From Escherichia phage JSS1, in the sequence record KX689784: a stretch of 39,024 nucleotides of DNA. One strand, given 5' to 3'. Numbering within the stretch: position 1 is the stretch's first letter; each line of letters begins with the position of its first letter. Shown piece by piece: positions 1-33,304 of this stretch. A model generated the notes under the pieces. The model had not been told where the DNA came from and did not search any database. It was given only the letters and a program-made list of their open reading frames with translations. A program made the translations under genes and the position numbers.

Positions 1-430
1 ATTACAGATAGAGACTCAGAGAAGACCAATAGTCCCAACCTATCGTCCTGACCTCCAGCCATAGCCTAGACCTATCGTCAGGACTATGGGTCAACCTTGA
101 GTCAACGACCTGAAGTTTAGACCGAAGGTCTAGGGGCAGGGCCTTTGGTCTGGACTTAAAGAGGGCCTATGGGGAGACTTGAGGTTCTTGAACTGTGAGA
201 TGTGGTCTCAAACTTTTGGTCCAAAACTCATCGAAGACTGTAGGTGGCAGCTACTGTAGGTCAAGGACCGTAGGTCAGGCGACACTAGGATAGACCAATA
301 AGTAGGATGACCCTAAGTGAGCTTCTATTAAGGTGTTACCTAAAGTCCTTGACCTACAGTAGCTAAGGTCAGTAGAGTGAGTCTTTATCCACGTACTGAC
401 CTTAGGTCTTCCGCTCATGAATCGTTACCA
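1..430. repeat. Non-coding terminal region with dispersed short repeats (GACTGTAGGT / CCGTAGGTC / CCTATCGTC types); likely holds the genome terminus and terminal-repeat sequences
   Basis: No ORF with start and RBS. Motif copies at 236-245, 254-261 and 268-276 continue the array at the window end. Position matches the T7 right-end/left-end non-coding regions. Confidence 0.5.
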
Positions 431-438
431 TGATTGCG

Positions 439-597
439 TTAACTACACTGAGAGACCAGAGAACATACGAGAGTCTCGACCCACCCGACCCACTGACTTC
501 CAGCAGTAACGCCAGCAGCAAGTAGAACAGCAGCAAGAAACCTGTATGTAGCTCGATTGGTCGCCAGAGCTTTAAGTACAGCTTTGGTCTTTGCCAT
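439..597 (-). CDS. Small hydrophobic protein (52 aa) at the T7 gene 19.5 position
   Basis: ATG at 597 with AGGAGG about 9 nt upstream, TAA at 439-441. Hydrophobic core FLAAVLLAAGVTAG. Lies downstream of the phiOR-type promoter as gene 19.5 does in T7. Below the 60 aa cutoff of the ORF track. Confidence 0.35.
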   Translation of the reverse strand: MAKTKAVLKALATNRATYRFLAAVLLAAGVTAGSQWVGWVETLVCSLVSQCS

Positions 598-746
598 ATG
601 CTACATACCTCCTGTATCTATGGTCGGTGACTATCTGTATTGGAGGGATTATGATTAATATCACCCTCCTGACTATATGGAGACCTATAGTCCTTACCTA
701 TATGCTAACTTTTAGTCGGCATACTATAAGGTCCCCCCGGTCCCCC

Positions 747-769
747 CATCCCTATAGTGATAGTTAAGT
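747..769 (-). promoter_or_regulatory. Phage RNAP promoter (phiOR-like), consensus class
   Basis: Minus-strand CTTAACTATCACTATAGGGATGG; full match to the repeated promoter motif; +1 G at 752. Confidence 0.8.
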
Positions 770-782
770 TAACCTATTGAAT

Positions 783-1325
783 TTACTTGTGGTTTCTATG
801 GGTCCTATCACGCTTAGGGGACCGTCGGTTTACTGCGTATTCCTTGTGCTTCTCAGTGCGTAAAGCATCAAGCCACACCTCTAGTTCCTCTATGGAATCT
901 GAGGTCTTCGTGAAGCACTTACCTTTTAGGCGCAACTGAGCGCGATACTTTCCGGTAGGCTTGAAAAAGCTGATACCTTTGGGTAGACCATTAGTATCGC
1001 CACCTCCTGAGTTCCATCGGTTCTCTAATGCTGTTACTAACCTGTAGTTATCCGGCCTGTCATCAAGTCTATCACCATTGATATGGTCAACCATCATGCC
1101 AGAAGGTATTCGACCAACGACTAGGCTGTAGATGATTCTGGCACGTCTATACCGACTGCCAAGAACCTTCACGATTGCGTACCCAGACGGATGAACTGAA
1201 TGTCCCATTACCTCACCGGGCTTCTTGCGAGATCCTTTATAAGGTTTCCTACACACCAACTCACCATCTACATAAGCATAGTGATTAAAGAGGGCCACCC
1301 TGTCGATGGCCTTCTGTTTACTCAT
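783..1325 (-). CDS. HNH homing endonuclease with AP2-like DNA-binding domain (180 aa)
   Basis: ATG at 1325 preceded by GGAGGAGGAG. HNH motif MVDHINGDRLDDRPDNYRLVT followed by an AP2-like segment GISFFKPTGKYRAQLRLKGKCFTKTSDSIEELEVW. Inserted between gene 19 and the phiOR promoter; not in T7. Confidence 0.8.
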   Translation of the reverse strand: MSKQKAIDRVALFNHYAYVDGELVCRKPYKGSRKKPGEVMGHSVHPSGYAIVKVLGSRYRRARIIYSLVVGRIPSGMMVDHINGDRLDDRPDNYRLVTALENRWNSGGGDTNGLPKGISFFKPTGKYRAQLRLKGKCFTKTSDSIEELEVWLDALRTEKHKEYAVNRRSPKRDRTHRNHK

Positions 1326-1341
1326 GTTTCTCCTCCTCCTA

Positions 1342-3102
1342 TTAGTGGAACGTAACGTATGACCCTAGTCCAAGCTCGTCCATATCGTGAGTTACCCGGA
1401 CCCCATTGTCCCAGAACTCAGTGTGGATGGACTCGAAGCCTTTCCGTGGGTTCTCCATCTGTTCCTCCAGCCACTCCTCAGTGACTTCACGTTCGCCTTT
1501 GTTGGCATCCTTAGCCATAGACTCAACGAAGAACTGTACACCGATAGCCAGCGCATCAAGTCGGTCATCGTGTGCCAAGGCTCCACGTTCACGAGAGATA
1601 CGGGTCATCTGATAGAAGAGAGAGTAGATAGGGTTACGAACACCATCCTTATCAGAGGCTGACTGGTAGTCTTGGACGATAGCAGCAGCGTTAACGATAA
1701 GTCGGTGAGACCCCATGATAGGCTCCAGAACGTCACAGATGCGGAGTTCTTTCTGACCCTTACTCTTCACTTCAGTTACAGCCGCAGGATGGATACGGGC
1801 CGCTACAGGCTTGAATAGCTCAAGGTACATGCCATCACCGAAGTTACCCTCAATGACGTATTCGTTGACCTTCCACTTACGACCAATCTTAGCCAAGGCT
1901 TCCAGCGTAGAGTCTTCATAACCACCACGCATGCCACCAACTTCCATAGCGAAGATGTAGCCGTTTAGCTGGTACAGTACCGCATAGCCAGTTTCATCCT
2001 TACCACGACCACTAGGGTCAATGACCAGAATCTTCTGGGTGTACGAGCTGAAGGCAGAACCTACAGTCTGATACGTGTGGTATGAATCACCCATGAGTCC
2101 AACGTTAGGAACGTCCTCACGCTTGTTCTGAGGGTTTGGCAACCATTGGTAGACCATTGGGCTGGACGCTGGGTCCAAGTCGGCTACGATAAGGTCACGG
2201 AGCTTTAGAGGGTACTTCTCAGCATCACTCAGGTTCGGGTTAAGCATGAACTGTAGAGCGAAGCCAGCCTTGCCATATGACAGCTCACGTTCCTTCAGGT
2301 CCGTATCATCGAAGCGTACTTCGTCGGTCGGACGCCAGTAGAATGACTCAGGGTCCTCTTCCAGCTCTGCCTGAAGCATAGGAGCCAGACGGTCGCCGTA
2401 AGACTGCCAGTCATTCTTATCGCGTGGATAACGAGCGGGCCAGATAGTAGTGGTATACCCACGACCTTCCAGCTCACGATACAGGGTCATCTCGTTCTGA
2501 GGAGTACCCAGATAGATGATTGTACCTCCCGGCTTCAGGATAGCGTCGAACTCTTTCACAAGCTCTGACAGACGGTCTCGTGCGGCCTGAGTCGCTGAGT
2601 TGTTCGGAACCTCTACGTCATCGGCAATCAGGATGTCAGCACGACTACCAGTCAACTGACCAGTGATACCAACAGACTTAACCGAAGGTGAGTGGTCTGG
2701 CTTGGCTGGCCCAACGTCGAAGCTAATAACCGCATCTCGCTGTCCCTGCTTAGGTTTGAGTTCCTGAAGCTGAGGCATGAGGTCGATGATTCGCTTGATG
2801 AATATGGAGTTAGCATCGGCTCGTTCTTTTGAGGCAGACACAATCATGAACTTCAAGTCTGGGTTGTTCCATAGTTTCCAGACCACGAATGCACACGTAA
2901 TGAAGGACTTCCCGATACCACGGAACGCCTGTAGGATGAAACGCCTGTTGTCCCCAGCCGATAGTTTCTTCGCCATGTCAATCTGACAGCGAGTCGGGAC
3001 TGGGAGTGACAGAGCTTTCCATAATACGAACAGGAAGAACACGAAGTCTGCCTTCATACGTGCTGTCATTAGCGCCTGACGCGCCACTAAGTCTTTACTC
3101 AA
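1342..3102 (-). CDS. 19: Terminase large subunit (T7 gp19 homolog, 586 aa)
   Basis: Strong similarity to T7 gp19 ([48 protein letters not shown]), same length as T7. Start codon is TTG at 3102 with AAGGAGGTG 5 nt upstream; it overlaps the gp18.5 TGA. Confidence 0.93.
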
Positions 3103-3548
3103 TGCGTCACCTCCTTATCTTGCTGCAAGGCTCTCACAGTGTCCTGAAGGGCCTTAATCCACTTGTCTCCTTTCACTCCGATGGCGATAAGACGTTTAGC
3201 ATCTCGTTCGTCAAGTTCGGCGTAACCATCAACGATGCATCGACCGTCACTTTGCGTGGCTCCACTCGTAGGTTTGACTCGGATGCGCAGCCGCTTATTG
3301 TCAGACTGAAGGTCAGCAATAATCCTATCAGTGCTGCCTTCCAGCGAGGACATTTCGTCCTGAAACCGTTTGGACACTTTGTTGACTTCAGCTTGGACAG
3401 CAAGCCTTGTATCTTCCGATGCCTTAAGATTCGAGGTGTATTCTGCATTGACCTTAGCCTCCCACTTATTGTTAGCGGTGTGGTAGCCACCAGCAAACAT
3501 CACTGCTGCAAGTAACCACGGAGCCGCTCTCTTTAAAAATTCGAGCAT
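3099..3548 (-). CDS. 18.5: Rz-like i-spanin (T7 gp18.5 homolog, 149 aa)
   Basis: N-terminus [18 protein letters not shown] and [24 protein letters not shown] resemble T7 gp18.5. N-terminal TM segment. GGGAGGG RBS. Confidence 0.85.
3173..3448 (-). CDS. Candidate Rz1-like o-spanin lipoprotein embedded in the +1 frame of gene 18.5
   Basis: Alternate-frame ORF inside 18.5 with a hydrophobic stretch ending in lipobox-like LTISGC and a proline-containing mature part. First ATG at 3448 (GGGAGG upstream) gives an unusually long N-region, so the true start is uncertain. Confidence 0.35.
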   Translation of the reverse strand: MQNTPRILRHRKIQGLLSKLKSTKCPNGFRTKCPRWKAALIGLLLTFSLTISGCASESNLRVEPRKVTVDASLMVTPNLTNEMLNVLSPSE

Positions 3549-6409: not shown

Positions 6410-6432
6410 GTTTCCTATAGTGATAGTTTAGT
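6410..6432 (-). promoter_or_regulatory. Phage RNAP promoter (phi17-like), consensus class
   Basis: Minus-strand GGACTAAACTATCACTATAGGAAACGG, overlapping the gene 16 stop. Confidence 0.8.
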
Positions 6433-29198: not shown

Positions 29199-29647
29199 CA
29201 CTTAACTCCTTTCTTCTTGGGGATGAGTATACCAGAAGGCAGACGTACAGTCGCCTCTCTCAGCCACTCAACCGGGATAAACTTGTCGGCAAACTTAAAG
29301 CCGTTCTTTTCGCACCATGCGCCATACGTGGTCGGAGACCCTTTGTATAACTTGGAGCGGGAACTTGAGAACACGAACCGAATGTCTAACTCTGGGTGCT
29401 GTTCTCTAATCAATAGGTGCTTCTTGCGGTCTTCCACTGCGAAGATTCCTTTGGTCTCCACAATTATTCCGTTGGGCAGTACAAAGTCTGGACAATAACT
29501 GTGAAGAGATTCTGGTATTGTGTACTTGATGCTATACATCTCGTACTCAGCCTTAACTCCGTTCTTCTCCAGCCACTCTTGGTTCTTTGCTTCTAGTCCA
29601 GACCTATATATTCCTACTTGATGCCCTCGGCTAATCGTTCTTGCCAT
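29198..29647 (-). CDS. 3: Endonuclease I, Holliday junction resolvase (T7 gp3 homolog, 149 aa)
   Basis: PDF.LPNGI.VETKG...DRKKHLLIREQHPELDIR.VFSSSR.KLYKGSPT.YG matches T7 gp3. ATG at 29647 with GGAGACG RBS; the track start at 29698 is a TTG extension. Confidence 0.93.
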   Translation of the reverse strand: MARTISRGHQVGIYRSGLEAKNQEWLEKNGVKAEYEMYSIKYTIPESLHSYCPDFVLPNGIIVETKGIFAVEDRKKHLLIREQHPELDIRFVFSSSRSKLYKGSPTTYGAWCEKNGFKFADKFIPVEWLREATVRLPSGILIPKKKGVK

Positions 29648-30080
29648 TCTTGCGTCTCCAATTAATAGCTTGCGGAGTAACGCCAAACATCTTAGCAAGT
29701 TCTATAGGCCTCAGCTTGGACTTCAGGATAAACGCTACGTCTTCCTCGGTCAGCTTAGTCTTGTGATTAGCTTCTCCTTCGAATACTGGCGGTTTCGAGT
29801 GACGTCCCCGCTTCACGCAGTCCTGCATGTTGTCCTTCTGAGTCCCAACTTCAAGGTGCTCAGGGTTACAGCAGCAAGGGTTATCACATTTATGTCTAAC
29901 AACCAATCCATCAGGTATATGACCTTTGTACTCCCTGTACGAAACTCGGTGAGAATAGTCCTGTTTCTGATGACCTATAGCTATTTGACCATAACCAGTT
30001 TTAGTCCGGGAGCGTTGCCACTCCCAGCATCCCGAAGGAGAAACCTTAGAGTAAGCCTCCAGTTTCTCTTTCAGCGTCAT
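29631..30080 (-). CDS. HNH endonuclease (149 aa) inserted between SSB and endonuclease I
   Basis: HNH signature CWEW...GYGQ...HR.SY...GHIP.GLVVRHKCDNPCCCNPEHLEVGT. ATG 3 nt after the gene 2.5 stop (TAAATG), with no strong RBS of its own. Confidence 0.8.
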   Translation of the reverse strand: MTLKEKLEAYSKVSPSGCWEWQRSRTKTGYGQIAIGHQKQDYSHRVSYREYKGHIPDGLVVRHKCDNPCCCNPEHLEVGTQKDNMQDCVKRGRHSKPPVFEGEANHKTKLTEEDVAFILKSKLRPIELAKMFGVTPQAINWRRKNGKND

Positions 30081-31890: not shown

Positions 31891-32352
31891 TTATAATGAA
31901 TCTCTTAAGGCTACCGCCTCGGCTATGGTAGCGAACGTACCGTATGACTTACGCTTTATCCTCAGTTGCCAGCGACCAGTCCTTGGCTCAAAGTTAATAT
32001 ACTTCTCGCCAGACTTGCAGTGGCTACGGACGGCGACGTTCGTCAGGTTCACTGCCTGAGTCACACACCTTAGGTTCTCAATGCGGTTATCAGAAGGGTC
32101 TCTGTTTATATGGTCAATAACCATTCCTTCCGGTATCGGACCGTGAGTTAGCTCCCAGACTACCCGGTGGGCAAGGAGTTGACCCTTGGTTGTGTTTATA
32201 ATCCAGTAGCCGTCCTTGCGTCGATAACCTAAGTGTTTACCCTTCAGGTTGGAGACTCCCGAAGGAGCCGTCCGGTCAACCTTAAATCTTGACTGTAGGA
32301 TTGTCCTCAGTCCCTCGCCACTGGTCGAATGACGGATGTCGCAAACTTCCAT
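31891..32352 (-). CDS. HNH homing endonuclease with AP2-like domain (153 aa) inserted after the ligase gene
   Basis: HNH motif MVIDHINRDPSDNRIENLRCVTQAVN and AP2-like KYINFEPRTGRWQLRIKRKSYGTFATIAEAVALRD; paralogous to the ORF at 783-1325. ATG at 32352 with GGAGGAGA RBS. Overlaps the ligase 3' end by about 70 nt; the track ORF extends further upstream. Confidence 0.75.
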   Translation of the reverse strand: MEVCDIRHSTSGEGLRTILQSRFKVDRTAPSGVSNLKGKHLGYRRKDGYWIINTTKGQLLAHRVVWELTHGPIPEGMVIDHINRDPSDNRIENLRCVTQAVNLTNVAVRSHCKSGEKYINFEPRTGRWQLRIKRKSYGTFATIAEAVALRDSL

Positions 32353-33304
32353 CTGGTGTCTCCTCCATGTAGGTAATCTGACAGGCCCACCCTTTGTAGT
32401 AATCTGGGTCTGACTTGACGTTCTCTGTGAACTCGGACATAAGGGCGCGACTAATGTTAGTTGCGGAGACCTCCATCCCGTTCTCAAGCATAACGTCAAA
32501 CCCAATGACCAGACCTTCGTTGGCTAAACCTTCCGTTCCCCACACCGGACGAACAACGTGACCATCTGCCTCTTCGCTTGGCTTCATTTTCCACATGCCT
32601 GACTTCTTGCCACGCTTGTATTTACCCAGCGGGTCCTTGACTACCAGACCCTCGTGTCCTTCCAGACGCTTCTGTTCGTACAGGGAGTTGAGCGACTCAA
32701 GGTCATAGACCGTGTGCGACTCAGACAGAACCCAGTCGATTTCCGGGAAGTATTTCTGGAGGAGAGGGACGATAGCTTCGGCCTTCAGGCGTGTGACGCT
32801 GTGGATAGGACCTTCTGCTTTCGGGTCAGCAATGGTTGTCATGTCGACAATACCGTAAACCACAACCTTAAGTCGTGACCGGGCGACCCAGAACGGGACC
32901 TTCTTGCCACGGCCCGAATAGCATTCAGCGAACTCCTCGTTGTTAGGCTTGAGCCACTTGGTTCGAATGAGACCTGAGGACGTATTAAAGTCAACACCTT
33001 TGACCATGACCTCGCCATCAATCATTAGGCCGATACCTTCATAGCCAGCTTGACGAAGGAACCACCTCCAGTCAGCCTGAGTCCACGCATTGCCTAACTC
33101 AGAGTTCATCCACTCAAGTGCTGGTAGTGGTTTAGACTCACGGCTTAACCAATAAGTCTCACCCTCTCGCAGCACCGGAAGGTTCAACCGCACACCGTCA
33201 TACTTCACTTCAGCTTCCAGCGACCCTGCTACTGCCAGTGCTTTCGTAACGCCTGACTCAGAGTAATCTACAGCGCGGTGCGGGTTGGTTTTGATAGTTG
33301 TCAT
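32282..33304 (-). CDS. 1.3: ATP-dependent DNA ligase (T7 gp1.3 homolog, 340 aa)
   Basis: IKTNP..AV, adenylation motif EVKYDGVR, YWLSR.SK..PALE, GEVMVKGVDFN.SSGL.RTKW, EGHEGLVVKDP, KRGKKSG.WKMKP, WACQITYMEETPDGSLRHPSF.QWRGTEDNP. Confidence 0.96.
   Translation of the reverse strand: MTTIKTNPHRAVDYSESGVTKALAVAGSLEAEVKYDGVRLNLPVLREGETYWLSRESKPLPALEWMNSELGNAWTQADWRWFLRQAGYEGIGLMIDGEVMVKGVDFNTSSGLIRTKWLKPNNEEFAECYSGRGKKVPFWVARSRLKVVVYGIVDMTTIADPKAEGPIHSVTRLKAEAIVPLLQKYFPEIDWVLSESHTVYDLESLNSLYEQKRLEGHEGLVVKDPLGKYKRGKKSGMWKMKPSEEADGHVVRPVWGTEGLANEGLVIGFDVMLENGMEVSATNISRALMSEFTENVKSDPDYYKGWACQITYMEETPDGSLRHPSFDQWRGTEDNPTVKI

Follow-up and report, generated by a model that had tools for sequence, protein, structure and literature searches.

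The window analyzed here, the whole stretch of 39,024 nucleotides, corresponds to Escherichia phage PE3-1 (Kayfunavirus PE31, NC_024379 / KJ748011) in reverse complement, with all genes on the minus strand. At 783–1325 it carries an open reading frame for 180 amino acids (stop codon at 783–785), identified both as a reading frame and by a matching annotation, since the PE3-1 record lists it as PE3_048 / YP_009044296.1, "HNH endonuclease, gp20". Upstream in the direction of transcription lies the gene for the large terminase subunit, gene 19 (1342–3102, minus strand; RefSeq start at 3069), and the 16-nt gap that follows its stop codon holds the Shine-Dalgarno sequence of the HNH gene, AGGAGGAGGAG (1330–1340, minus strand), which bears out the strong ribosome binding site described in a first-pass annotation of this sequence. 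The gene is free-standing: it has its own Shine-Dalgarno sequence and ATG in the intergenic region between gene 19 and phiOR, and lies in neither an intron nor an intein. Thirteen nucleotides beyond its end is a phiOR-type phage RNA polymerase promoter (746–769, minus strand, spanning −17 to +6 with the start site at 752), so the position claimed earlier, between gene 19 and this promoter, is correct. The promoter leads into a leader (671–748, minus strand) and then to a gp19.5-like ORF of 52 amino acids (439–597, minus strand), which forms the conserved downstream flank. T7, by comparison, is free of coding sequence from the end of gene 19 (39130) through phiOR (start at 39229) to the beginning of gene 19.5 (39389), again as the first-pass annotation had stated.

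The promoter core, TAACTATCACTATAGGGA at 749–766, matches the consensus of this phage at every position; we found nine such sites, every one on the minus strand, where chance alone would give 0.01. The nearest upstream promoter on the same strand is at 6412–6429, and no convincing terminator lies between it and the HNH ORF. Scans of positions 1–3200 for terminators and sigma-70 promoters gave nothing above chance; the one terminator-like hairpin in this region falls within the 5′ end of the HNH ORF itself. The GenBank/RefSeq record of PE3-1 is linearized inside the phiOR leader (record end at window 742, record start at window 738), which places the HNH gene 41 bp from the record end and parts it from what lies downstream. 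That record is longer than the window by 69 nt; the two ends of the window show no direct terminal repeat.

At the protein level, the catalytic half is readily recognized. The HNH_3 (His-Me finger) core occupies residues 63–105 (1011–1139, minus strand); Pfam HNH_3 matches residues 63–102 of the 180 (E = 1.8e-14), and PHROG 99, "HNH endonuclease", spans residues 3–177 (E = 6.6e-40). The beta-beta-alpha-metal HNH motif, with its catalytic His and metal-ligand Asn/Asp, is present, and, aligned with 58 homologs, the protein retains the full catalytic set, H81, N93, R95 and N105 being invariant and D80 and N102 at least 90% conserved. Together with this core, the N-terminal beta region (residues 1–62; 1140–1325, minus strand) resembles I-HmuI (PDB 1U3E), which was reached by the family profile (E = 1.1e-11) and by the family profile only, a single-sequence phmmer search against PDB returning noise. 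The AlphaFold model (mean pLDDT 89, pTM 0.77) places after the N-terminal beta region and HNH core three strands (118–121, 126–133 and 136–142) and a long helix (145–163), which form a divergent AP2-fold DNA-binding domain (residues 113–163; 837–989, minus strand), followed by a basic tail modeled with low confidence (residues 164–180; 786–836, minus strand). The Pfam AP2 model has no match to either the full protein or the isolated C-terminal domain, even at E ≤ 10, so that the AP2 assignment rests on fold, profile comparison and homologs: the same Pfam model matches 16 of the 59 aligned homologs in the columns of this domain, and the C-terminal column profile aligns in register with the AP2 segment of ERF096 (hhalign probability 88.7%, E = 2.6e-6). 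The protein thus carries a C-terminal, if divergent, AP2 domain after its HNH domain, the arrangement that defines HNH-AP2 homing endonucleases, and the first-pass description of an HNH plus AP2-like protein holds with that qualification.

This architecture belongs to a very large family, within which the PE3-1 protein forms an isolated ortholog group. An exhaustive HMMER search, used instead of a word-indexed homolog search that gave only four matches, recovered 27,378 cluster representatives at E ≤ 1e-3, of which only two reached E ≤ 1e-30. NCBIfam holds no family for the protein or for the ORF at 31891–32352, its presumed paralog in the first-pass annotation; the two do belong to the same family, as distant members with 35% identity over 109 residues. 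This second HNH_3/AP2-like gene (31891–32352, minus strand) is under-annotated in RefSeq, where only a 77-residue C-terminal piece that starts within the HNH motif is called (PE3_012, 'gp1.4 hypothetical protein', window 31891–32124). Its full ATG-started ORF of 153 amino acids has 71 nt in common with the DNA ligase gene (32282–33304), at the 3′ end of the latter, and a longer TTG-started ORF of 204 amino acids is also open at the locus. A third gene, at 29634–30080 (minus strand, 149 amino acids; Pfam HNH_3 E = 7.8e-15), has a Cys-rich HNH core, CDNPCCCNPEH, and no AP2-like tail, bringing the total of HNH_3 genes in PE3-1 to three.

Fourteen phage records and two metagenomic contigs (about 40 kb) encode close orthologs of the 180-residue protein (84–100% at the amino acid level). 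The phage records are PE3-1 (two), SR04, Zappy, Emlis, Bia, Midid, phiYIO1-1, Esher7, ECO104 4-5-2, CHRF_30001, pO91 and Ro45lw (two), and the order terminase, HNH, gp19.5 is kept wherever checked (nine phage loci and one of the two contigs). The HNH-less haplotype, with the layout of T7, is present in 171 records, mostly at 95–99% identity. By these counts roughly one related phage in 13 has the gene, and about 92% of the records do without it; the general presence among relatives, with no sign of mobility, that would have spoken against a mobile gene is not what we see. The HNH+ phages are not monophyletic and lie scattered among HNH-less phages on the terminase tree. For PE3-1 itself, the nearest relatives over 25 kb are Pkp-1, phi1_146013, LM33_P1, ECG4 and LS3, none of which is among the HNH+ records. 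Such sporadic presence at one homologous site, discordant with phylogeny (14 HNH+ against 171 HNH-less records), is what characterizes homing genes. The metagenome scan yielded the two orthologs, neither of them ectopic, and the IMG/VR scan no close ortholog, only paralogs at 31–44% identity; no ectopic copy of the ortholog was found, nor a near-identical pair of HNH+ and HNH-less genomes that would document a recent gain. The closest outgroup homolog (48% identity) follows a gp16-like SLT protein in another T7-like contig, which is a different site.

To delimit what differs between the two states, nine HNH+ and seven HNH-less phages were compared. They fall into two discrete haplotypes with perfect association. 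In the HNH+ haplotype, the gene 19 stop codon is TAA and is followed by the ribosome binding site, the 180-residue ORF and 11–13 nt before the promoter; in the HNH-less haplotype the stop codon is TAG and is followed by a 93-bp spacer. The promoter core is the same in both, and these 21 bp (749–769) are the sole island common to the two haplotypes inside the module. Beyond it the leaders diverge again, that of HNH+ phages beginning TGGGGG(G)AC(C/T)...GGGGG(G)ACC and that of HNH-less phages AGACCCCCGGTTAC..., and the HNH+ leader (671–748) is confined to the same 14 records as the gene. The two haplotypes become homologous again from window 670 on, some 70 nt ahead of gene 19.5. With homology edges at 1342, the third base of the gene 19 stop codon, and at 670, the unit is a replacement module of 672 bp (671–1342, minus strand), comprising the HNH gene, promoter flank and distinct leader, rather than a bare insertion; it stands in for 225 bp (93-bp spacer, promoter and different leader) of HNH-less Kayfunavirus such as ST31. 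The earlier view that the gene was "inserted" is accordingly right as to its absence from T7 and most relatives, with the qualification that the insertion is not a clean one, and we found no clean target-site duplication. Whether the empty site is ancestral was approached by aligning the spacers of T7 and ST31, which have layout and promoter in common and homology too weak for a call.

Outside the module the haplotypes are alike. HNH+ and HNH-less phages show a single fixed difference over 900 nt on the upstream side and about 500 nt on the downstream side, namely at the third position of the stop codon, and a search of gene 19 and gene 19.5 for fixed protective substitutions gave none besides this one. 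Any difference between a cleavable and an immune allele must therefore sit in the replaced segment or its junctions, to which the comparison with HNH-less relatives narrows the candidate target. One phage departs from the common right edge: in pO91 (locus L008), the stretch from the HNH stop codon to gene 19.5 consists of the HNH+ leader, a (CA)n microsatellite run and then the 3′ part of the HNH-less leader, making the intergenic region about 100 bp longer. This junction is unlike that of all other HNH+ phages, and its sequence indicates an independent recombination event.

None of the nine orthologs compared is broken, and each has exactly 180 amino acids, with dN/dS values of 0.04–0.13 for pairs with dS from 0.27 to about 1.5. 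By these values, purifying selection on the gene is strong and extends over at least four deep allelic lineages. Its neighbor, the terminase gene, differs far less. Between PE3-1 and the other phages its dS is 0.14–0.40 overall, 0.06–0.19 in the last full 100-codon window and 0.05–0.16 over the last 69 codons beside the HNH gene (seven backbone-like phages). A single HNH allele (dS 0–0.025) is common to Midid, phiYIO1-1, Esher7 and ECO104, the terminases of which differ by dS of 0.15–0.27, and conversely SR04 and phiYIO1-1 differ by a dS of 1.53 in the HNH gene and of 0.11 in the terminase. By these distances, the genealogies of the two neighbors are decoupled in both directions, which, along with the presence of the gene in 14 and its absence from 171 records, is consistent with the mobile, free-standing gene of homing-endonuclease type that the first-pass annotation had proposed.

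Decoupling of this kind could also be ordinary recombination without a nuclease, because Kayfunavirus genomes are mosaic in general and the 5′ end of gene 19 likewise has two alleles. An inactive or non-specific relic of a homing endonuclease gene might spread or persist in this way as passive cargo, carried along only by the frequent general homologous recombination of T7-like phages. The backbone is indeed mosaic everywhere, in the terminase 5′ alleles as in the variable segments downstream of gene 19.5, and the lack of both a clean target-site duplication and an ectopic copy would suit such a relic. A relic would hardly be expected, however, to be under strong purifying selection over its entire ORF, to keep its catalytic residues intact and its length constant among nine diverged orthologs, or to have spread as a single allele over diverged backbones, and we regard this explanation as improbable.

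Recombination has also left its mark on the sequences next to the module. Gene 19 divergence climbs toward the HNH gene in CHRF_30001 and Ro45lw only (L005, L007), reaching 18–23 differences per 60 nt, and the final ~55 nt of the gene exist in these two phages in an alternative, strongly diverged version; in the remaining seven HNH+ phages the sequence stays backbone-like as far as the module. The region upstream of gene 19.5 is diverged in the same two phages, and both flanks are co-inherited with their HNH alleles. These gradients look like co-conversion tracts from a divergent donor, as judged from the sequence pattern; the donor lineage of the flanks is absent from the phage collection searched. 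Further out, the segment from gene 19.5 to the terminal repeat (window ~1–380 and its counterparts in relatives) is a patchwork with blocks of 37–60 differences per 60 nt, which are common to subsets of phages (Esher7, CHRF_30001, EcoP_F, LM33P1, CHRF_20041) independently of HNH status.

At the opposite end of gene 19, the first 100 terminase codons of SR04, phiYIO1-1, pO91, Midid, ECO104 and Ro45lw differ from those of PE3-1 by dS of 0.7–1.7, and a second TerL N-terminal allele, KKTP.ER.AEMTQRMRDDF, is visible in SR04, Ro45lw and ECO104. Another small homing endonuclease gene lies between the Rz gene and gene 19 in phiYIO1-1 (gp48 'putative homing endonuclease'), SR04 and pO91 (2875–3258 in L006, 4105–4542 in L003 and 3140–3426 in L008), with PE3-1 lacking it (window ~2800–3102); it is the 397-bp indel studied in Hafnia phage Ca (PMC8861465). 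On this comparison, both ends of gene 19 are hot spots for homing endonuclease genes.

Taken together, the ORF at 783–1325 is probably an active free-standing homing endonuclease gene of the HNH_3 plus AP2 class, maintained in a minority of Kayfunavirus, for which we predict both cleavage and homing. The intact catalytic residues within a recognizable domain architecture, the site-specific presence/absence polymorphism, purifying selection, decoupled genealogies, variable junctions and, in two phages, tracts resembling co-conversion are all observed here and consistent with such a gene. From them we infer the following course. The protein would be translated late from its own strong ribosome binding site, as the last cistron before phiOR on a read-through transcript that covers gene 19. 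When HNH+ and HNH-less phages infect the same cell, the protein would bind, through its AP2 domain and N-terminal beta region, a site found only in the HNH-less allele, presumably within the 225-bp spacer/leader or spanning its junctions, where the I-HmuI-like HNH domain would nick or cut. Repair from the HNH+ genome would then copy the whole 672-bp module into the recipient, sometimes along with neighboring gene 19 sequence, and the HNH+ genome would itself be immune because its target segment has been replaced. Not everything accords with this course. The classic model of invasion and decay expects some decayed copies, so it counts against homing that every copy is intact with dS near saturation. 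A scan of GC and GC3 composition showed no sign of foreign origin for the HNH gene, and its GC content (47.3% vs 49.9%) is unremarkable and lends no compositional support to one. The perfect linkage of gene and leader could, for its part, mean selection for a function at the level of the phage.

Such a function may involve the leader. Just downstream of the phiOR start, two tandem GGGGGGACC repeats (739–747 and 730–738, minus strand) cover +5 to +23 of the transcript; tandem GGGGG(G)AC(C/T) repeats are kept, with variation in their spacing, in nine of nine HNH+ phages across deep lineages, and HNH-less phages have a single GACCCCCGG at the leader position. The pair GGGGGGACC GGGGGGACC is the only one in the window with two G5 tracts within 10 nt, and the coding strand has six runs of G5 or longer and none of C5 or longer. 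The G-tracts at 730–747 are, from their sequence and conservation, a possible binding or target element for the AP2 domain. One may then imagine a domesticated, dual-function DNA-binding nuclease that is co-adapted with its linked leader, its AP2 domain binding the tandem G-tracts, and that acts at the right genome end on transcription from phiOR, the priming of replication or the processing of concatemers, or else protects the phage's own DNA, with selection acting on the phage. The phiOR promoter lies in a region of T7 that is important for replication and packaging. The low dN/dS (0.04–0.13) at near-saturated dS without a decayed copy, the perfect linkage of the gene to a distinct leader in all 14 records and the retention of the G-tracts would fit, and AP2 domains are reported to favor GC-rich DNA (PMC10448857). 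Against this, about nine-tenths of related records manage without the gene, which is consequently not essential; the tandem site, observed once where shuffled sequences give 0.49, is not statistically exceptional by itself; and linkage is expected anyway, as the only homologous stretch between gene and leader is the promoter core of 21 bp. We consider a dual function of this kind unlikely. The specific version in which the AP2 domain binds the tandem GGGGGGACC in its own genome and the enzyme cleaves at the inverted single C-tract of the HNH-less allele, the module controlling right-end transcription, replication priming or end-processing under phage-level selection, is more speculative and something of a long shot. 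If true, a co-adapted phiOR module would be a weapon in phage–phage competition or a regulator and not only a selfish homing element, and would explain the deep, intact and strongly constrained allelic lineages.

A role in DNA packaging, which the first-pass annotation had raised as a possible co-opted function, fares worse. The gene does adjoin that of the terminase large subunit near the genome end, just as HK97 gp74 is an HNH-superfamily nuclease encoded beside terminase genes near a genome end, and accessory nucleases of this type, which aid terminase in cutting concatemers, are documented in cos phages by the work cited in PMC8861465, PMC10448857 and PMC3592412. The HK97 gp74 type and the PE3-1 gene nonetheless differ in HNH subtype, position, terminase family and packaging strategy, and the PE3-1 gene is not conserved among relatives. 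TerL here is of the Terminase-T7_RNaseH-like plus Terminase_6N type and not Terminase_1, the relative Ro45lw has direct terminal repeats of 190 bp and not cos ends, and the gene sits downstream of terL instead of upstream of terS at a cos site. Packaging HNH proteins are described as bearing [CxxC]2 zinc sites (PMC3592412); the PE3-1 protein has C25 and C137 as its only cysteines and no CxxC zinc motif. Finally, 171 related records and T7 itself package without the gene. We reject the identity with packaging HNH proteins on these grounds and hold a helper role for terminase to be highly improbable.

With homing as the favored reading, our results leave the current understanding of such genes unchanged: the HNH gene falls into a well-known class, and the existing annotation already names its product an HNH endonuclease. 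A literature search returned no paper that analyzes it, only a table entry for Ro45lw (PMC9866566). New here are the module-replacement structure with its linked leader and the distribution, selection and genealogy of the module; mildly unusual are the replacement itself with a linked leader and alleles that are deep yet strongly constrained. This may have practical application: the genus (K1F-like coliphages) is in wide use for therapy and biocontrol, a small mobile module here adjoins an essential packaging gene, and modules of this kind can skew the inheritance of markers in phage cocktails or during engineering. The two natural alleles, the HNH+ module of 672 bp and the empty site of 225 bp, further offer a compact and tractable system for the specificity of HNH_3-AP2 enzymes and for the question why some phage homing endonuclease genes stay intact under purifying selection, without decay.

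Among known systems, one of the closest is I-HmuI of Bacillus phage SPO1 with its HNH_3 relatives, which have the catalytic module in common with the PE3-1 protein. I-HmuI and the PE3-1 protein both combine an N-terminal beta region with an HNH_3 His-Me finger, and their catalytic positions coincide, at only ~21% identity over ~100 aligned residues. I-HmuI nicks one strand, and the PE3-1 protein probably does likewise. The two differ in that I-HmuI is encoded inside a group I intron, whereas the PE3-1 gene is free-standing and intergenic, and in that the C-terminal DNA-binding part of I-HmuI is helical (helix-turn-helix type), where the PE3-1 protein is modeled with an AP2 fold. In this respect it is closer to the HNH-AP2 proteins, homing endonucleases known as a class from phages, cyanobacteria and protists (PMC10448857; PMC3022922), which these two sources trace to Magnani et al. 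2004. Members of the class have an N-terminal HNH and a C-terminal AP2 domain, as does the PE3-1 protein by our assignment, and in phages they often lie, again like the PE3-1 gene, beside essential genes including terminase (PMC10448857). The related IPA-HNH class of vibriophage ICP1 differs in that its HNH domains are too divergent for Pfam HNH_3 (PMC10448857), whereas in PE3-1 the HNH_3 domain is canonical and the AP2 domain divergent. Homing endonuclease genes near terminase genes and at recombination boundaries have been described (PMC10448857), and their variable content among T7-like phages is well documented (PMC4925675; PMC8861465). The Seg and Mob genes of T-even phages and the homing endonuclease genes of T7-like phages (gp5.3, gp3.8-like, CR44b-type upstream of gene 19) share with the PE3-1 gene their intergenic location beside essential genes and presence/absence polymorphism, and with its orthologs in CHRF_30001 and Ro45lw flanking divergence consistent with co-conversion, but belong to other nuclease families (GIY-YIG or other HNH types) and occupy other sites. 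The mobile unit of PE3-1 includes a promoter-proximal leader and takes the place of resident non-coding DNA, instead of being a mere addition to it.
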